A DNA stretch of 64,000 nucleotides from Burkholderiaceae bacterium (GCA_043788365.1 JAYVTZ010000013.1:11071-75070), one strand, 5' to 3'; numbered from the stretch's first letter, positions 33,734 to 61,980 are shown. A program made the numbers and translations. The notes: generated by a model from the sequence alone, not told the origin.

Positions 33734-34417
33734 ATGATTCTATTAGACAGGGTAACCAAAACATATAGCCGCGAAACAGGCGCAGCTCTCGAGCGCATCA
33801 GCCTACACGTTGAGCCTAAAGAGTTCGTTATCATTATTGGCTCGAGTGGCGCTGGTAAGTCGACACTCCTAAAACTTTTGACCAGAGAAGAGAAACCGAC
33901 CAGCGGCAAAATCGTTGTTGGTGGTATCGACTACAGTAAGCTAAAAGACAAAGACATCCCATTGCTGCGCCGTAAAATTGGCACGGTATTTCAGGACTTT
34001 AAGTTACTGCCGGGCAAGAACGTGTTTGAAAACGTCGCTTTTGCACTGGAAATTGTCGGCATGAGCAATAAAGAGATTAATCACACTGTACCAAGGGTCC
34101 TTGATATTGTCGGCCTAAAAGGCAAAGAAAAACGGATGCCAATGGAACTGTCTGGTGGTGAGCGTCAACGTGTCGCCATCGCCCGGGCAATCGTTCGGCA
34201 GCCGAAAATTTTGATCGCCGACGAGCCAACTGGCAACCTCGACCCCAAGCACGCTTGGGACGTTATTAAGGTTCTAGAAAAAATTAATCGTTTCGGTACA
34301 ACCGTGATATTGACCACACACAACCAAGAAATCGTTAACAAACTAAAGCGCCGCGTGATTACAATTAGCGATGGCAAAATTGTTAGCGACAGAGCCAACG
34401 CGGAGTACCACGCATGA
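33734..34417 (+). CDS. ftsE: cell-division ABC ATPase FtsE
   Basis: GSSGAGKST, LSGGERQR, ILIADEPTGNLD. Followed by ftsX with an ATGA overlap. Confidence 0.9.
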   Translation: MILLDRVTKTYSRETGAALERISLHVEPKEFVIIIGSSGAGKSTLLKLLTREEKPTSGKIVVGGIDYSKLKDKDIPLLRRKIGTVFQDFKLLPGKNVFENVAFALEIVGMSNKEINHTVPRVLDIVGLKGKEKRMPMELSGGERQRVAIARAIVRQPKILIADEPTGNLDPKHAWDVIKVLEKINRFGTTVILTTHNQEIVNKLKRRVITISDGKIVSDRANAEYHA

Positions 34418-35376
34418 GCAGCGGCGAACGATTCAAGCGCTGGCTGATTACGCTGTGGCGGATATTCCGCACCGGCTGCACCAACTTTGTCCGCAATGCC
34501 TGGCTAAGTATCGCCGCCATGGCGGTAATGTTAATTACGCTGACAATCGTATTATTTTCGGTGATTGCCAACGCTACTTTTACCCATACTATTCAGCAAA
34601 TCACCGACAAAATCGACATCTCGGTCTACTTAAAAGATACCGTCACCAAAGATCAGCGCGACAAACTACTAAGTGATGTTAAGGGACTGGCCAACGTAAA
34701 GTCGGTTAATTACCTCAGCAAAGACGACGCTTTGACAGCCTACAAAGCCCAAAATGCTGGCAACGTCAATCTGTTATTAGCAATTTCTCAGACCGACAAC
34801 CCTCTACCGGCCAGCCTGCAAATTAAGCCTAGAGACGTTAACAAAATCGGCGACATCAAGACCTACCTCGATAAAAAAGATATTAAGGCTATGCAGTCGG
34901 ACGAGACGTCGTATTCCGGCGACCGCAAAGAAGCCGTCGACAAAATTACTCACGCCACCAACTTTATGCGCAAGGCCGGCATCATTGGTGTGCTAGTTTT
35001 TGCATTTATATCAATGCTGATAATCTTTAACACTATTCAAATGGCAATCTTCAACCGCCGTGACGAACTGACAATCATGCGACTACTTGGCGCTAGTACT
35101 TCGTTCATCCGCGGGCCGTTTGTGGTCGAATCGGTACTGTATGGAATTATCTCAGGCATGATATCAATTGTACTGCTTAATGGTTTGTTTGCAGTCTCAT
35201 CGTCGACTCTGCAGGCCAGCAGTTTAGGACTTTTGGATATTAATTATGCCAACGAATATTTTGCTTCTAAGTTCTGGCTGTTTTTGACATTACAGCTGGC
35301 AACCGGTATATTTATAGGTGCCGCATCATCGATAATTGCCACGCGGCGCTACCTCAAATTCAAGACCAGCAAATAA
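34414..35376 (+). CDS. ftsX: cell-division permease-like protein FtsX
   Basis: TM1, a large extracellular loop, and 3 C-terminal TMs with RRDELTIMRLLGAS. Confidence 0.85.
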   Translation: MSSGERFKRWLITLWRIFRTGCTNFVRNAWLSIAAMAVMLITLTIVLFSVIANATFTHTIQQITDKIDISVYLKDTVTKDQRDKLLSDVKGLANVKSVNYLSKDDALTAYKAQNAGNVNLLLAISQTDNPLPASLQIKPRDVNKIGDIKTYLDKKDIKAMQSDETSYSGDRKEAVDKITHATNFMRKAGIIGVLVFAFISMLIIFNTIQMAIFNRRDELTIMRLLGASTSFIRGPFVVESVLYGIISGMISIVLLNGLFAVSSSTLQASSLGLLDINYANEYFASKFWLFLTLQLATGIFIGAASSIIATRRYLKFKTSK

Positions 35377-35459: not shown

Positions 35460-36695
35460 ATGAAAAATCATCGAAATACACCGTTAAATAGACAGGCAGT
35501 AGCCTTGCGTAAGTTTGCACAAAGTGCTACATTTATGGTGGTTATGCTAAAACAAAAATTCATAAATAAAATCAGTCATGTTATTAAGAGCACGCCGACG
35601 CTGATTATTACCCTTGTCGTTGCTAGCGGCGCCCTCATTGCACCAAGGGTTCAGGCCGATCAATTCGACGCCAAAATTCAGGCCCTGCAGCAAGCTAATG
35701 CCGCCAAACAACAGGCTAAATCACAACTCGGCGCCGAAGCTTCATCCTTAGCCGATGCCCTAAATAAGCTTCAAGTTCAGATTAACGCACTCCAAGCCCA
35801 AATTGATGCCAACAAAGCCAAGGTTGCCGACCTAGAAAAACAGATTAGTGATGCCGAAATTGAGCTAGCCAAGCAAAAGCTAGTACTCGGCGAAAATATC
35901 AAGGCGATGTACTTAGAAGGCCAGATAACTACATTAGAGATGTTGGCTTCGAGTAATGATTTAAGCGAGTTTGTCGACAAGCAACAATATCGAAATACCG
36001 TCCAGAACAAGATTAAAAGCATGGTTGATGCGATTACGGCCCTAAAACTACAGCTAAAAGAACAAAAAATATCTGTCGAACAAACATTGAGCGACCAAAC
36101 CATTTTGCAAGGCCAACTTGACGGTCAACGCGCCGAGCAACAAAGAATTCTATCACTCAACCAGTCTCAGCAAGATGCTCTTAATCAGCAAATCAGACAA
36201 AACAGCCAAGCTGTCGCGGCCTTAAGAGCCGAACAAGCGGCGGCCAATGCCAGGTTATTCAACGGTGCTAACGTCGTTCTTGGCACGGCCCGCGACACCG
36301 CTCACGGTGACACTTATCCGAGCCCTTGGTGTTCGTCAACCCAAGACAGCATGCTCGATAGCTGGGGTATGTTTAACCGCGAGTGTGTCAGCTACACGGC
36401 TTGGCGGGTGTCCGAGAGTGGTCGTTATATGCCACCATGGGGCTGGCAGGGACTTGGCAACGCTAACCAGTGGAACGATGACGCCATCGCCTCCGGTATC
36501 CCAGTCGACACGCATCCTCGGGCCGGCGATGTCGCTATCAAAAACAGCCTACCATTTGGCCACGCCATGTACGTCGAGAGCGTCAATGCTGACGGCACGA
36601 TTAACATCAGTCAATACAACGCCAGTCTTGATGGCCGCTTCTCGCTAGCCTACAACGTTCAGGCCGGTGGCTTACTATTCATCCATTTTCGATAG
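35460..36695 (+). CDS. secreted coiled-coil plus CHAP-domain peptidoglycan hydrolase (PcsB/CwlO-like FtsEX partner)
   Basis: Signal peptide, about 200 aa of Q/A/L-rich coiled coil, and a C-terminal CHAP domain (NRECVSYTAWRV Cys; GHAMYVESV His). Confidence 0.75.
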   Translation: MKNHRNTPLNRQAVALRKFAQSATFMVVMLKQKFINKISHVIKSTPTLIITLVVASGALIAPRVQADQFDAKIQALQQANAAKQQAKSQLGAEASSLADALNKLQVQINALQAQIDANKAKVADLEKQISDAEIELAKQKLVLGENIKAMYLEGQITTLEMLASSNDLSEFVDKQQYRNTVQNKIKSMVDAITALKLQLKEQKISVEQTLSDQTILQGQLDGQRAEQQRILSLNQSQQDALNQQIRQNSQAVAALRAEQAAANARLFNGANVVLGTARDTAHGDTYPSPWCSSTQDSMLDSWGMFNRECVSYTAWRVSESGRYMPPWGWQGLGNANQWNDDAIASGIPVDTHPRAGDVAIKNSLPFGHAMYVESVNADGTINISQYNASLDGRFSLAYNVQAGGLLFIHFR

Positions 36696-36800
36696 ACTCG
36701 GATATTCGCCTTAGCAAGTTTTCAATTTAGTAGCGTAGCCATAAGCATGTATGCGATAATGCTTGGGAGTCAAAATAAATAGAGATTTTTTGGAGGCTAT

Positions 36801-38048
36801 ATCAAGACACTGCCACTTCCACCACAAGATGGTGCCCAACCGAAGCGACGTAAAAGATGGTTTAGATTTGTTGAAACGGCCAAGTTACTAGTTTTTGGCA
36901 TAGTAGTTTTTTGGTTTGGGCTAACCGTCGGACAGGGAAAGATTGTCTTTGGCCGCGACGCAATCCTACATAAGCCAGTCGCTAAAGGCCTGCCCAATAA
37001 TCTCGACTACACGGCTGTCGAGCAGGTCTATGACAGCCTGAAAGATAACTACGACGGTCAATTAGACAGTGCCAAGCTACTTGATGGTCTCAAAGAGGGC
37101 CTAGCTAAATCAACTGGCGACCCATACACTCAGTACTTTAATCCAAAAGCCGCCAAAGACTTTAAAGAGCAATTAACAGGCACATTCACTGGTATCGGTG
37201 CCGAACTGAGCAAGGACACGACCAATAATGTCATTGTTGTCGTCTCGCCGATTGCTGGTTTCCCAGCCGATAAAGCAGGACTAAGGCCAAAAGATGTTAT
37301 TGCCCAAATCGACGGTAAGTCGGCGGTTGATTTGTCGATTAATGACGCAGTCAGTAAGATCCGCGGCGCTAAAGGCACTACCGTCAAACTCACGATTATT
37401 CGAGACGGTAAGCAACAAATTGAAATGAGCATTGTTCGAGATGAAATAACGATTCCAAGCGTGACCTCAAAAGTTTTGGACGGCAACATTGGCTACATCA
37501 AGATAGTTAGATTCGCCGAAGACACGGCACTATTATCTAGCCAGGCGGCAGATAAGTTGAAATCACAAAATGTAAAAGGCATTGTACTCGATTTGCGGTC
37601 TGACCCAGGCGGTCTACTCGATGCTGCGGTATCGGTCTCAAGCTTGTGGCTAGACAATCAAACCGTTTTGACAGAACGCCGCGGTGGAGTCATCATCCGC
37701 ACCTATGCCTCCAAGGGCATCCCGACTCTAAAAGGCATACCAACGATTGTGCTAATTGATGCTGGTAGCGCCTCGGCTAGTGAAATCACTGCCGGAGCCT
37801 TGCACGACAATAAGGTCGCAACTCTAGTCGGCGTTAAGAGTTTTGGTAAGGGCAGTGTCCAGCAAATCGTTAACTTTAACGACGATAGCTTCTTAAAGGT
37901 TACGATTGCCCGTTGGTACACGCCAGATGGCAAGAATATCGATAAGGAGGGCATTAGCCCTGATACCGAGATTAAGCGGACTGATGATGACTACAAAACT
38001 GGTAACGATCCTCAGCTCGACTTTGCTACCGCACAACTCAAGAAATAG
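36801..38048 (+). CDS. ctpA: C-terminal processing (S41) peptidase; start codon non-canonical or uncertain
   Basis: The frame is open from 36783. It encodes a TM segment, TGDPYTQYFNP, FTGIGAEL, a PDZ domain (AGLRPKDVIAQIDG), GSASASEI (Ser) and SFGKGSVQ (Lys). The track shows only 37332..38048 because no ATG, GTG or TTG occurs in frame upstream. GGAGG (36792-36796) precedes ATC at 36801. Confidence 0.8.
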   Translation: MKTLPLPPQDGAQPKRRKRWFRFVETAKLLVFGIVVFWFGLTVGQGKIVFGRDAILHKPVAKGLPNNLDYTAVEQVYDSLKDNYDGQLDSAKLLDGLKEGLAKSTGDPYTQYFNPKAAKDFKEQLTGTFTGIGAELSKDTTNNVIVVVSPIAGFPADKAGLRPKDVIAQIDGKSAVDLSINDAVSKIRGAKGTTVKLTIIRDGKQQIEMSIVRDEITIPSVTSKVLDGNIGYIKIVRFAEDTALLSSQAADKLKSQNVKGIVLDLRSDPGGLLDAAVSVSSLWLDNQTVLTERRGGVIIRTYASKGIPTLKGIPTIVLIDAGSASASEITAGALHDNKVATLVGVKSFGKGSVQQIVNFNDDSFLKVTIARWYTPDGKNIDKEGISPDTEIKRTDDDYKTGNDPQLDFATAQLKK

Positions 38049-38079
38049 TTTTCTTTAGTCCGCTAAAGCGGACTTTAAT

Positions 38080-38294
38080 TTGCCACTTTTGTCTCGGCAA
38101 AAGATGGCGCAAAACCGAGGGGCGGTGTCGACAACTCGATATAGCTTCCAAACAAAAAGACAACACACCCTCCGGAACTCATCCTAACGGATTTCAAACA
38201 GTCCTCGGGAATTAGTTTGTTGTCTTTTTGATTGAATCTATTTCGGGTCGCCGTCAAGCCCCCATAAGACCATGGATGCCCGCTGGAGGCGGGC
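38080..38294 (+). repeat. structured repeat, copy 2 (same ends, different core)
   Basis: TTGCCACTTTTGTCTCGGCAAAAG...GGGGCGGTGTC...CAAAAAGACAACA/TGTTGTCTTTTTG...CAAGCCCCC...GCCCGC-TGGAG-GCGGGC. Confidence 0.6.
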
Positions 38295-38375
38295 GATTAC
38301 ATAACAGCTAAAACTACCAATTCACATAATCCCCATCTGTTTGGGGACGAACCCCAACCCACATAATAAATATGA

Positions 38376-38597
38376 TTAATGATTGGCTGCGGACTTGTAT
38401 AACACTCTGATCACGTACCTAACGCCTTTGTATAGTTGTAAGTAGAAAAGTACGGGTAGCGAATACGTTAGTAGGCCTAAGATAAGAGAGAACCGATTAT
38501 GTCTGTCTGGTAATATATTCCGCTCATCAAGCATGCGATACGACTCTTTAAAGCTCTCATAAGTCTTAGCTGGTAATTCTTTATAATTAATCGACAT
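38376..38597 (-). CDS. hypothetical 73-aa single-TM protein (cassette cargo)
   Basis: Hydrophobic stretch FSLILGLLTYSLPVLFYLQL. On the minus strand, TGgTATCAT ends 6 nt before the ATG. Confidence 0.45.
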   Translation of the reverse strand: MSINYKELPAKTYESFKESYRMLDERNILPDRHNRFSLILGLLTYSLPVLFYLQLYKGVRYVIRVLYKSAANH

Positions 38598-38710
38598 AAG
38601 TGTATGATACCATCTAAATAATAAAACTAGCCCATGACTCCTGGTCTGCTATCCCACCCTACGCACTTGTTGCCAGGGGATATTCACCTATATTTTTAAT
38701 TTATAAAATT

Positions 38711-38968
38711 GCCCGCCTCCAGCGGGCATCCTTGGTATTAGAGGGGGCTTGGCTGCTTCCTGATACATGTCTCGTCAAACTGACAACTTCTGCAGTGGAC
38801 TCAGCCATCAAACTCTATTTTGAAACTTTGATGGCCGACTGTAAGGAGTCGTCCACTGCGTTGTCAGGCTTGACAGGAGACTGTATCAAGAAGCAGACAC
38901 CGCCCCGAGTTTTTGCGCCATCTTTTGGCGGTCCAAAAGTGGCAAAGAGTAGTCTGCTTTAGCGGACT
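38711..38968 (-). repeat. structured repeat, copy 3
   Basis: By eye, roughly four-fifths identical to copy 1, with compensatory changes in helices. GC hairpin at 38711-38727. Confidence 0.6.
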
Positions 38969-39109
38969 AAAATAGACCTATCTTAAATTATAATTGAGGT
39001 TTATATCAGAGAACCAGTTTGCAGAGTTGCATATTTTACACTTGCCATAAGCGTTGCATCTAGGGTAGTATCTATAATGTAAAGTTCAAAACGAGGGGTT
39101 GTATAAGAG

Positions 39110-40714
39110 GTGGCAAAGCCTACTAAGTATATTTTTGTAACTGGTGGGGTGCTTTCCGGATTAGGAAAGGGTATTACCGCCGCTTCAATTGGCAATCTCT
39201 TAAAGGCCCGCGGCCTAAAAGTAAACATTCAAAAGTGTGACCCGTATCTTAACGTCGATGCGGGTCTTTTAAATCCTAGAGAGCACGGTGAGTGTTTTGT
39301 GACTAAAGACGGCGCCGAAACTGACCTCGATCTTGGGCATTATGAGAGATTTTTAGACCAAGAATTAACATCGTCCAGCAGCCTAATGAGTGGACGTGTT
39401 TTATTACAAGTTATTCAAGACGAACGGGCCGGTAAATACGACGGCGAAGACGTACAAATTATTCCACATTTAACTGCTGCAATTCAGAAATATATTGTTA
39501 AGGCTGGCGAAGGCTTTGACGTCCATATAGTGGAAATCGGTGGTACTGTCGGAGACTACGAATCACTCAGCTTTATCGAAGCAATCCGCGAAATGAGTCT
39601 GAAAGTGGGTCAGGAAAATTGTTTGTACGTCCATGTGGTTTATTTGCCATTCCTCGGCGCTAGTCAAGAGACTAAAACTAAGCCAGCCCAGAACTCTGTT
39701 CGTGAACTACGTGGCCTTGGCATTGCACCTGATATTTTGGTAGGACGTAGCGAAAAGAAGGCTAATAACGGTGTTAAAAATAAGTTAAGTCTGTTTTGTG
39801 GTGTGCCAGAAGAAGCGATCGCATTGTTACCAAACGCGTCGTCGATTTATGAAGTCCCTTTGACGCTAGAAGATACCGGCATTGCCGACGTGATTTGTAA
39901 GAAGTTAAGGTTACGCCATAAGAAACCAGACCTAAAAACTTGGCGCTCGGTCGTCAAGAAGGCGACTACCTCGCACAAGAATAAGGTCACGGTTGGAGTA
40001 GTTGCTAAGTATATGGATAACACCGATACCTACATGTCGGTTTTTGAAGCGCTGCGCTCAGCCGCACTATGGAATGATGTCGAACTCAAAATAAAATGGA
40101 TCGACGCCGAAAAACTTAAAAAAGAAAAAGATGTCGAAAAAGCCCTGACAAATATTGATGGTATTGTTGTGCCCGGTGGCTTTGGTACCCGTGGTCTAGA
40201 GGGTAAAATCTTGGCCGCCCAATACTCACTAAATAAGAAATTGCCATATCTTGGTCTGTGCTTGGGCCTACAAATGGGAGTAATCGCTGCCGCTCGTAAT
40301 GCTGGTATCAAGGACGCTACTTCCGAAGAGATGAATCCTGGCGGCAAAGACATGGTCATAAACACCATGGTTGATCAAAAGGGCAAAGAAAACACTGGTG
40401 GCACTATGCGTCTTGGTAATTATCCATGCGTGATTGAAAAGGGTAGCTTGGCGGCTAAAGTTTATAAATCAACAAATATTGTCGAACGCCATCGCCATCG
40501 CTACGAGTGCAATAACGACTATCGTGACCAATACGAGTCTTGGGGCATCCGCCCAGTCGGCAAGTCACCAGATGGCCACCTAGTAGAGATAATTGAAGGT
40601 ATCGACCACCCATTCTTCTTAGCTAGTCAATTCCACCCAGAGTTTTTGTCACGACCGAACCGTCAGCACCCGATGTTTGATGGCTTCATCCAGGCCAGCA
40701 AGCACAAGTCGTGA
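39110..40714 (+). CDS. pyrG: CTP synthase
   Basis: KYIFVTGGVLSGLGKG, and a GATase domain with GLCLGLQ and HRHRYE. Confidence 0.95.
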   Translation: MAKPTKYIFVTGGVLSGLGKGITAASIGNLLKARGLKVNIQKCDPYLNVDAGLLNPREHGECFVTKDGAETDLDLGHYERFLDQELTSSSSLMSGRVLLQVIQDERAGKYDGEDVQIIPHLTAAIQKYIVKAGEGFDVHIVEIGGTVGDYESLSFIEAIREMSLKVGQENCLYVHVVYLPFLGASQETKTKPAQNSVRELRGLGIAPDILVGRSEKKANNGVKNKLSLFCGVPEEAIALLPNASSIYEVPLTLEDTGIADVICKKLRLRHKKPDLKTWRSVVKKATTSHKNKVTVGVVAKYMDNTDTYMSVFEALRSAALWNDVELKIKWIDAEKLKKEKDVEKALTNIDGIVVPGGFGTRGLEGKILAAQYSLNKKLPYLGLCLGLQMGVIAAARNAGIKDATSEEMNPGGKDMVINTMVDQKGKENTGGTMRLGNYPCVIEKGSLAAKVYKSTNIVERHRHRYECNNDYRDQYESWGIRPVGKSPDGHLVEIIEGIDHPFFLASQFHPEFLSRPNRQHPMFDGFIQASKHKS

Positions 40715-59150: not shown

Positions 59151-60701
59151 ATGACTCAAGACGAAGCCTTAGCAATATTAGAGTCGGGCACTTCTGTACT
59201 ATTAACTGGCGCAGCTGGCGCAGGTAAAACACATACCCTGAATAAGTTTATTCAGCGTTCCAAGCGGGCCGGCAAGAATGTTGCAGTTACGGCCACAACC
59301 GGCCTGGCCGCTACTCATCTGAATGGCACGACACTGCATGCCTGGTCTGGCATAGGTGTTCACGACGAATTACCACACGAGTTTTTCAAGCGTATGAGTA
59401 AACAGCGACGTGATCTAATCACAAAGGCTGATATTTTGGTAATTGACGAGATTAGTATGCTCCACGATTTTCGTCTGGATATTGTTGAAGAAGTTACTCG
59501 GCGGATTCGTGAAATTGACCAGCCATTTGGTGGCCTACAGGTTGTCATGAGTGGTGACTTCTATCAGCTACCGCCAATAAACCGTGGCGACTCACGTCAA
59601 GGTGGTTTTGTTACGTTTTCAAAAGCATGGCACAACGAAATATTTGAAGTTTGCTACTTGTTGGAGCAGCATCGTCAAAAAACTGATCAAGAATACACTG
59701 ATATTTTAAACGGTATTCGAGTGGGGGTATTGCGCCAAAGCCAGATTGATAGATTGAAGTCAAGCAGCGACACAATACATGATCCGTGGCTTTCCATGAC
59801 TAGATTGCTAACGACTAATGCCGACGTCGACACCATAAACTTACGTCAATTAGCTAAGCTTGAAGGCGACTCAAAGCAATTTGTGATGTCGTCGTCAGGT
59901 GGCAAAAAGTATGTTGAACAGTTGAAGCGATCGTGTTTAGCGCCGGAGCTGCTCGAACTTAAAGTCGGCGCTATCATAATGTGTATCAAAAACAGCCAAG
60001 ACAAAAAATATGTTAACGGTAGTTTGGGTGTTGTTGAAGATTTCGACGGCGATAGCGGCTATCCAGTCGTAAAACTAATCAATGGCCGTACGCTAACAAT
60101 TAAGCCTGATACTTGGGAGCTTATTGATGGTGATAAGCGCCGGGCCCAGATTACCCAACTACCGCTCAGATTGGCATGGGCGATAACGGTCCACAAAAGT
60201 CAGGGTATGACACTTGATGCGGCCAGAATTGATCTTAGCAATGCGTTTGTAGAAGGCATGGGCTATGTAGCTTTATCACGGGTCCGCGGACTCGAACATC
60301 TGATACTCGATGGCCTTAATGGTATGGCTCTGCGAGTTAGTCCTGTGGCTAGGCGGATCGATGAGGAGTTGCGTAGTAAAAGTGAAGAGGCACTTGAAAG
60401 ACACAAGAGTCTGATAAATATCTGGAGAGAGGCCGAAAAATCGAGACCCAAAATTAGCGCTCGGCCTAAATCTAAACCCGAGCCAGCTGCAGGTGCCTGG
60501 ACAGAAAAACTCGAAAAAATGCGTGAAGTTTACCCCAATGCCTATCGCCCTTGGACCGAGAAAGATGATGCTAAACTCAGACAGCAGTTTGACGCAGGTG
60601 CAGGTCTATCGACCCTTACTTCTAGTTTTGGTCGCCACCCAGGCTCTATCAAATCACGGTTGAAGAAGCACTATGGTGACGATTTTAGCTTTAAAGCTTA
60701 A
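59151..60701 (+). CDS. Pif1/RecD-like SF1 helicase with a C-terminal helical (HTH-like) tail
   Basis: TGAAGAGKTH (Walker A), VIDEISML, SGDFYQLPPI, AITVHKSQG. Confidence 0.8.
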   Translation: MTQDEALAILESGTSVLLTGAAGAGKTHTLNKFIQRSKRAGKNVAVTATTGLAATHLNGTTLHAWSGIGVHDELPHEFFKRMSKQRRDLITKADILVIDEISMLHDFRLDIVEEVTRRIREIDQPFGGLQVVMSGDFYQLPPINRGDSRQGGFVTFSKAWHNEIFEVCYLLEQHRQKTDQEYTDILNGIRVGVLRQSQIDRLKSSSDTIHDPWLSMTRLLTTNADVDTINLRQLAKLEGDSKQFVMSSSGGKKYVEQLKRSCLAPELLELKVGAIIMCIKNSQDKKYVNGSLGVVEDFDGDSGYPVVKLINGRTLTIKPDTWELIDGDKRRAQITQLPLRLAWAITVHKSQGMTLDAARIDLSNAFVEGMGYVALSRVRGLEHLILDGLNGMALRVSPVARRIDEELRSKSEEALERHKSLINIWREAEKSRPKISARPKSKPEPAAGAWTEKLEKMREVYPNAYRPWTEKDDAKLRQQFDAGAGLSTLTSSFGRHPGSIKSRLKKHYGDDFSFKA

Positions 60702-60720
60702 TCGTATACAATTAATAGTG

Positions 60721-61980
60721 ATGGAATCCAAAAAACAAAGAAAAACAATCTTCCCGAAAGACTTCCTTTGGGGTGCAAGCACGGCTAGCCATCAAGTCGA
60801 AGGCGGCAATTATAATCAGTGGACTGTTTGGGAATTAGAGAATGCTAAACGACTGGCGAGTACTGCACAAAAAAGACTTGGCTGGATGCCGTCGTGGGAC
60901 TTAGTCGAGAAAAGAGCCACCAGCCCGAGTAATTACGTGTCAGGTGAGGGTATTGATCATTATCATCGCTATGAGCATGATTTTGATATAGCCGAGAAGC
61001 TGAACATTAATTCATTACGCTTCGGTATTGAATGGTCGCGCCTAGAGCCAGAAATGGGTAAATGGGATAACGAACAAATCATCCATTACAAAAAGTATAT
61101 TAAAGCCATGACTACCAAGGGTATGACACCAGTGCTTAATCTTTGGCACTGGACGCTACCAACTTGGTTTAGCGATAATGGCGGCTTCAAGAACCGTGCT
61201 AATTTGGTCTACTGGCAGGGCTTTGTCCAAAAAGTTGCCGATGAACTATTGACTGACATCGACTACGTGATTACGCTGAACGAGCCTAATGTTTATGCTA
61301 GCTTTGGCTATCTCAACGGCGAGTGGCCACCTCAGGAAAAGAATCTCATCAGCATGGCCCGGGTCTATTGGAATTTAACCCGCGCCCATAAGCAAGCCTA
61401 TGCCATCGTCAAAGCTAAAAATCCAAAAATCCAAATTGGTATCGCTGCCCAACTAGCTAATATTCAAGCCAAGCGGCCACACAATATGATTGATTCAGTC
61501 GTGACTAAAATAATGCGGTATGTATGGAACTGGTGGTTTTTGCATCGTATTAACAATCAGCAAGACTTCGTCGGCTTTAACTATTATTTTACCGATTATT
61601 ACAAAGGCTTTAAACGGGCTAATCCGGCCGTCCCGGTCAATGATCTCGGCTGGTACATGGAACCAGAAGGAATTTATCCTTTGTTGCTAAGAGTTTGGTC
61701 CAGATTTAAAAAACCGATTATGATTGCCGAGAATGGCACGGCTGACGAAGGCGACGAATACAGGCAGTGGTGGATCGGCGAAACCATCGTTGCCATGGAG
61801 CGGGCGATTAGTGAAGGTGTCGATGTTATTGGCTATTTCCACTGGAGTCTACTTGATAATTTTGAGTGGGCCTATGGTTGGTGGCCAAAATTTGGTCTAA
61901 TTGCAGTTGATAGAAATACAATGAAGCGACAAGTTCGTAAAAGTGCGCTTTGGTATGCCGAGCAGATAATTAAAAGATAA
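60721..61980 (+). CDS. GH1 family beta-glucosidase
   Basis: FLWGASTASHQVEGG, TLNEPN (acid/base Glu), IAENG (nucleophile Glu). ATG 60721 lies 8 nt after TACAAT (60707-60712). Confidence 0.85.
   Translation: MESKKQRKTIFPKDFLWGASTASHQVEGGNYNQWTVWELENAKRLASTAQKRLGWMPSWDLVEKRATSPSNYVSGEGIDHYHRYEHDFDIAEKLNINSLRFGIEWSRLEPEMGKWDNEQIIHYKKYIKAMTTKGMTPVLNLWHWTLPTWFSDNGGFKNRANLVYWQGFVQKVADELLTDIDYVITLNEPNVYASFGYLNGEWPPQEKNLISMARVYWNLTRAHKQAYAIVKAKNPKIQIGIAAQLANIQAKRPHNMIDSVVTKIMRYVWNWWFLHRINNQQDFVGFNYYFTDYYKGFKRANPAVPVNDLGWYMEPEGIYPLLLRVWSRFKKPIMIAENGTADEGDEYRQWWIGETIVAMERAISEGVDVIGYFHWSLLDNFEWAYGWWPKFGLIAVDRNTMKRQVRKSALWYAEQIIKR

Follow-up and report, generated by a model that had tools for sequence, protein, structure and literature searches.

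Very few non-canonical starts are confirmed for bacteria. The AUU codon of infC, the gene for IF3, is conserved across many bacteria. In E. coli, infC and pcnB, both of which begin with AUU, are the sole confirmed cases (Hecht et al., bioRxiv 10.1101/063800). Initiation from AUA, AUC, AUU or CUG in this organism reaches about 1-2% of the AUG level, with a range of 0.02-3%, and a protein initiated at AUC has been shown to carry an N-terminal methionine (bioRxiv 10.1101/063800). A literature search returned few cases of AUC starts on bacterial chromosomes, and none that deals with the start codons used by Saccharibacteria in particular. The gene considered here is ctpA of an uncultured Saccharibacterium, carried on a 64-kb stretch of DNA, the whole of which is referred to as the window. 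It resembles infC and pcnB in being a bona fide gene without AUG, GUG or UUG and with a putative near-cognate AUN codon behind a Shine-Dalgarno (SD) sequence, and, by analogy with them, low initiation subject to discrimination by IF3 would be expected. Unlike the AUU of infC and pcnB, the codon would be AUC, and unlike that of infC it is limited to a small clade. In addition, the product is a cell-envelope protease and not a factor of translation or RNA metabolism, so that there is no obvious autoregulatory loop. The ctpA start would be a new example of a known rarity, involving no new kind of mechanism.

The closest solved structure to the product is that of CtpA from Pseudomonas aeruginosa (7rpq, E = 7e-63), and CtpB from Bacillus subtilis (4c2c) is also matched. 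P. aeruginosa CtpA degrades peptidoglycan hydrolases, which fits the genes for FtsEX and a CHAP hydrolase that adjoin ctpA in the window. In common with these enzymes of MEROPS family S41, the window protein has a PDZ and an S41 domain, the serine of GSASA and the lysine of FGKG, with about 35-40% identity over residues 72-395. It differs from the Pseudomonas and Bacillus proteins in having, at its N-terminus, a predicted single-pass membrane anchor whose cytoplasmic tail is basic. It is also without the Pseudomonas enzyme's dimerisation/adaptor region at the C-terminus, the aligned part ending at residue 394 of 415.

The open frame of ctpA and its product

A scripted codon walk bears out the initial annotation, which had described a frame open from the TAG at 36780-36782 with no ATG, GTG or TTG between 36783 and 37331: the walk found zero canonical codons in that interval, and the frame (frame 0, plus strand) then runs open to the stop TAG at 38046-38048 (Table 1). 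The first canonical codon, TTG 37332, is residue 178 counted from ATC 36801 and lies inside the PDZ domain, which Pfam places at residues 131-206, as expected from the statement that the ORF track begins in the middle of that domain. The spacings given there from GGAGG, namely 4 nt to ATC and 13 nt to CTG, are also correct, and the walk found no near-cognate codon other than these two upstream of the transmembrane (TM) helix, so that the view that they alone are plausible initiation points holds.

Table 1. Features in and around ctpA, in window coordinates
Feature	Position	Strand	Basis or remark
Extended -10-like element TGcGATAAT	36752..36760	+	Conserved block TGnNATAATGCT; inferred
In-frame TAG closing the frame upstream	36780..36782	+	Sequence
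Shine-Dalgarno GGAGG	36792..36796	+	GGAGG/GAGG-type motif conserved here in orthologues
ATC, likeliest initiation codon	36801..36803	+	'GGA GGN NNN start' geometry; ATT in L001
CTG, alternative near-cognate start	36810..36812	+	13 nt past GGAGG; likelier an internal Leu codon
Full-length ctpA CDS, proposed	36801..38048	+	415 codons and stop; homologue coverage
TM anchor LLVFGIVVFWFGLTV	36885..36929	+	Translation; preceded by basic KRRKRWFR; conserved in orthologues
PDZ domain	37191..37418	+	PF13180, PF17820 and PF00595, residues 131-206
TTG, first canonical in-frame codon	37332..37334	+	Start of the 238-aa public gene call
Peptidase S41 domain	37485..37973	+	PF03572, E = 1.4e-48, residues 229-391; GSASASE and SFGKG
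Terminator-like hairpin 3' of ctpA	38057..38074	+	Inferred from consensus

The absence of a start is specific to this gene. Of the 53 ORFs in the 64-kb window that measure 150 codons or more from stop to stop, 52 have a canonical start 40 codons or fewer from the upstream stop, the distance in ctpA being 183 codons, which shows that the oddity is gene-specific and that the assembly is free of widespread indels. Relaxed start usage in this genome and general damage to the assembly were both rejected, as the 52 other long ORFs are normal. Nevertheless, the 177-codon run without a canonical codon is unexceptional in length by itself, and it is its N-terminal position that is unusual. Internal runs of 229 and 174 codons without canonical codons occur elsewhere in window genes, and for this reason no depletion of ATG, GTG and TTG in the N-terminal half of ctpA is claimed (0/177 versus 10/238, Fisher p = 0.006; P = 3.6e-4 for 0/177 under a naive Bernoulli model).

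The protein itself appears to be an intact, membrane-anchored carboxy-terminal processing protease of the S41/CtpA type. The S41 profile is matched over its full length, and PF13180, PF17820 and PF00595 place a PDZ domain N-terminal to it. The basic N-terminus, TM helix and two motifs of the initial annotation are all present in the translation (KRRKRW, LLVFGIVVFWFGLTV, TGDPYTQYFNP and FTGIGAEL). Aligned to the structures, 7rpq (GSASAAE) and 7rqh (GSAAAAE) differ in one serine, and the window protein keeps that serine (GSASASE) together with the lysine of SFGKG. We take 7rpq to be the wild type and 7rqh the S302A catalytic mutant of P. aeruginosa CtpA, and the retained residues, from what is known of the family, to be the catalytic serine and the lysine of the dyad. 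The Ser-Lys dyad of the window CtpA is, by this alignment, kept. Homologues are plentiful in Saccharibacteria; nearly all are 405-420 aa long and cover 96-100% of the ATC-to-stop translation, which tells against the concern that orthologues might reveal a split or truncated gene.

The part of the frame that precedes TTG 37332 is conserved as protein. The nearest orthologue, P0001 (loci L001 and L002), is 86% identical, and in comparison with L001 the 177 codons before the TTG give pN 0.10 and pS 0.92 (saturated), and the remainder of ctpA gives pN 0.084 and pS 0.77. Since the protein is conserved while synonymous sites are saturated, the start-less N-terminal 177 codons are to all appearances translated and under strong purifying selection. 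The N-terminal frame-0 peptide LPL..QPKR..FVET.KLLVFG is likewise conserved in P0001. This conservation tells against rescue by a frameshift, whereby the +1-frame ATG 36829 would lead, through a 1-nt indel or a -1 slip at the neighbouring AAAA (36852-55), to MVPNRSDVK joined to RWFRF: the frame-0 peptide upstream, LPL.P...QPKR, is retained in P0001. Read-through of TAG 36780 from the ATGs at 36747 and 36759 was also rejected, because L001 does not share these ATGs, which overlap the conserved -10 element.

The intergenic region has otherwise diverged, and the sole block that the window shares with L001, L003 and L175 is TGcGATAATGCT (36752-36763). This block is similar to an extended -10 element, with a predicted transcription start near 36766-36768, and GATAAT/TATAAT-like elements are found upstream of many ctpA orthologues. 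A consensus promoter scan did not call the element at 36752..36760, for want of a -35 element. The leader (36766-36860) is less structured than its own shuffles (z = +1.56) and has no stable fold, and no Rfam family was matched anywhere in the window; a structured leader RNA element for ctpA was rejected on these two grounds.

Start sites in orthologues and in the immediate clade

The 5' ends of about 50 orthologous ctpA loci from Saccharibacteria were tabulated. Most have an SD-like motif followed a few nt later by GTG or, less often, by TTG or ATG. The initial annotation had proposed to look in orthologues for ATG at the equivalent position; what corresponds there to the window's ATC is a GTG start. 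Seven orthologues (L008, L009, L086, L087, L172, L017 and L169) combine a perfect GGAGG with a canonical start, at spacings of 4, 4, 4, 4, 5, 6 and 6 nt, and the GGAGG-4 nt-ATC of the window falls within this range of 4-6 nt. Four of them are arranged as GGAGG-gtta-GTG (L008), GGAGG-gtgt-GTG (L009), GGAGG-atac-GTG (L086) and GGAGG-gttt-GTG (L087). The TTT GGA GGC TAT ATC of the window is the same in-frame 'GGA GGN NNN start', in which ATC replaces the GTG of these four. The window is the sole locus of the set without any canonical start. Four short gene calls (P0005, P0025, P0123 and P0140) were considered as further start-less orthologues and rejected as caller errors, an SD-led GTG or TTG being present upstream in each.

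SD-led initiation is one of two arrangements in the family. In several more distant orthologues (e.g. L023, L033, L007, L024 and L025) no SD is present and the ATG follows a TATAAT-like hexamer by only about 8-10 nt; the ctpA mRNAs of these loci may be leaderless, and the family appears, from such sequences, to switch between leaderless and SD-led initiation. Use of SD sequences seems sparse in the window genome, where about 15 of 49 window genes have an SD-like motif of at least four bases 2-15 nt before the candidate start. A full GGAGG precedes only three other starts in the window (23479, 48674 and 57284). A survey of ribosomes of the candidate phyla radiation (CPR) reports less frequent detection of the anti-SD motif only in a subgroup of Parcubacteria (PMC9297842), from which Saccharibacteria are assumed to keep SD pairing.

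A neighbour-joining tree groups the window with its closest relatives as (P0002,(P0001,window)), with P0004 and P0005, which have GTG starts, as sister. Only in the clade of the window, P0001 and P0002 is the SD-proximal in-frame codon ATY (ATC or ATT). The window has GGAGG-4-ATC, L001 and L002 have GGAGG-4-ATT ATT, L003-6, L084 and L089 have GGAGG-6-ATC ATC, and L175, a diverged member of the P0002 cluster, has GGAGG-9-ATC. ATY persists in the clade despite the saturation of synonymous sites from one lineage to another. L003 and L175 have an identical SD block, ATGTGTTGGAGGGAA; of the 6 nt that precede the retained ATC, 3 are different in the two, as against only 2 of the next 27 nt. This pattern suggests that the ancestor of the clade already carried ATY ATY instead of GTG. 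The codon aligned to CTG 36810 is TTG in L001 and TTA in L003-6 and L175, so CTG 36810 looks like a synonymous internal leucine codon.

Each relative also keeps a canonical option. L001 has a TTG 13 nt past the SD, at which its gene is called, and in the P0002 lineage an ATG lying 8 nt upstream of GGAGG, the start used by NCBI, is conserved; the 15 listed members of the cluster all carry it, each being 419 aa long. On account of these options the ATY codons of the clade could be ordinary N-terminal isoleucine codons and the window a recent start-loss variant. The clade is thinly sampled, with one species only closer than 80% identity. Apart from L110, a C-terminal fragment with 93% identity, no orthologue between 86% and 100% identity turned up in two protein searches or in scans of genomes and metagenomes.

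Proposed initiation at AUC 36801 and the competing readings

That ctpA begins at a non-canonical codon, as had been proposed, is supported by the intact gene, the purifying selection, the reproduced sequence and the failure to find a rescuing frameshift. As to the codon used, the evidence tips in favour of AUC 36801 as the beginning of translation, by a modest measure of confidence. Two lines favour ATC over CTG: the position of GTG in orthologues together with ATT in the sister lineage, and the variation of the second codon between CTG, TTG and TTA, the last of which is unable to initiate. In the proposed sequence of events, an extended -10 promoter of its own would produce a ctpA mRNA with a leader of about 35-40 nt, GGAGG at 36792-96 would position the 30S subunit, and initiator tRNA would pair at the near-cognate AUC, 4 nt downstream, to give fMet-KTLPLPPQDGAQPKRRKRW... 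A start at AUC 36801 would yield the N-terminal peptide (f)MKTLPLPPQDGAQPK, and one at CUG 36810 would yield (f)MPLPPQDGAQPK. By analogy with E. coli, initiation would be a few percent of that at AUG, leading to low expression of ctpA that might respond to IF3. Part of the weakness of AUC would be made up for by the strong SD, a rarity in this genome, and some additional initiation at CUG 36810 is possible.

Several observations weigh against AUC 36801. At 4 nt the spacing is towards the lower limit of what is usual, and SD-led initiation is not general among the genes here, where even a four-base SD is the exception. Nor do the four lineages share ATY at any one aligned codon, the window having it in the first slot only and L175 in the second only. 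The canonical options kept by the relatives and the thin sampling of the clade count in the same direction.

Initiation at CUG 36810, the ancestor having used TTG and the window lineage having drifted to the weaker CTG, is an unlikely reading with some points in its favour. CTG 36810 aligns exactly with the TTG at which P0001 is called, with CCA next in both, and the distance from SD to YTG is 13 nt in the window and in L001 although only 4 of the 13 spacer positions are identical. CUG is, moreover, as good a near-cognate codon as AUC in E. coli (bioRxiv 10.1101/063800). Against this, 13 nt is outside the 4-6 nt seen in 7/7 GGAGG-led orthologues with canonical starts and is extreme for the family overall, the aligned TTA of the P0002 lineage is no start codon and fits an internal leucine, and the TTG of P0001 was picked by a gene caller limited to canonical codons.

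Recent loss of the start (ATC 36801 arising from ATG, or CTG 36810 from TTG), leaving a young pseudogene or a useless 238-aa fragment from TTG 37332, is improbable. The window does stand alone among about 50 orthologues in having no canonical start, and purifying selection measured against a distant relative is compatible with a very recent event. However, the 415-codon frame is intact with its presumed catalytic serine and SFGKG lysine, and it has kept its SD and promoter block as well as an unstructured leader. ATT occurs independently in the same slot of the sister lineage, which suggests that the SD-proximal canonical codon was probably already gone in the common ancestor, and both sister genes are intact while synonymous sites are saturated. 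The product from TTG 37332 would also have no membrane anchor and only half a PDZ domain.

A sequencing or assembly error, a single wrong base hiding ATG (36803, C for G) or TTG (36810, C for T), is very improbable: it would take the change of one base, at either site, to bring back a canonical start, but a different assembler applied to a public run gave an identical start region (Logan contig L170, run SRR23617268, 2 samples, equal to window 36280-38108 except for one SNP at 36291, and possibly from the same library as the deposited MAG), no other ORF in the 64 kb looks damaged, and L001 and L002, two separate assemblies, are also without a canonical SD-proximal codon. The sequence of the ctpA start region is probably real.

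Neighbourhood, annotation and biological meaning

In the window, ftsE (33734-34414) and ftsX (34414-35376) are followed by a coiled-coil/CHAP hydrolase gene (35460-36695), ctpA and pyrG (39110-40714). This synteny is conserved, and the four-gene part ftsE-ftsX-CHAP-ctpA recurs in many Saccharibacteria loci. The product of 35460-36695 begins with a coiled coil and has its CHAP domain at the C-terminus, an architecture like that of PcsB. The conserved order suggests that the S41 protease is functionally linked to the FtsEX-controlled hydrolase. It is plausible, as speculation, from the position of ctpA after FtsEX and the PcsB-like CHAP gene that the level of CtpA is low and tuned.

The gap of ~1 kb between ctpA and pyrG contains a segment of about 920 nt (38054-38971) bounded by imperfect 96-nt inverted repeats (38054-38149/38876-38971, 79% complementary). 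A nested 46-nt inverted pair (38259-38304/38701-38746, 85%) encloses a 73-aa ORF on the minus strand (38376-38597). As ctpA and pyrG are separated by only about 80-100 nt in L168 and L172, the segment looks like an inserted element, be it a MITE, an IS remnant or possibly an invertible segment. Elsewhere in the window, ARAGORN reported a 96-nt 'tRNA-???' at 61761-61856 with a four-base anticodon (ggag), inside the ORF 60673-61980; this call, for which there is no Rfam tRNA match, is probably a false positive.

The public gene call (P0121, NCBI and Logan) is a 238-aa protein, 100% identical to the translation of window 37332-38048, in which only the S41 domain is recognised. It is best read as a truncation artefact, the real product being, on the evidence of the frame and its homologues, a 415-aa membrane-anchored PDZ protease. 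As in other gene-caller truncations in MAGs (P0005, P0025, P0123 and P0140), the call begins too far downstream; unlike in those, no SD-led GTG or TTG lies upstream in the window. Callers limited to ATG, GTG and TTG mis-annotate such genes or label them as pseudogenes in MAGs.

A broader proposal, put forward tentatively and with little confidence, is that ctpA of the window, P0001 and P0002 has long been kept on an AUY start behind an unusually strong SD as a throttle responsive to IF3 and growth state, and that the throttled protease probably controls the adjoining FtsEX-CHAP (PcsB-like) module. If true, this would be a second independent use of an infC-like near-cognate start, and the first in the CPR. 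The clade gives a modest hint that a weak start has been maintained across a small group of relatives, in a gene by which the amount of a regulator of cell-wall hydrolase is plausibly set. A near-cognate start persisting in an ultra-small, host-dependent clade would, if true, provide a natural case of the trade-off between the strength of the start codon and that of the SD.
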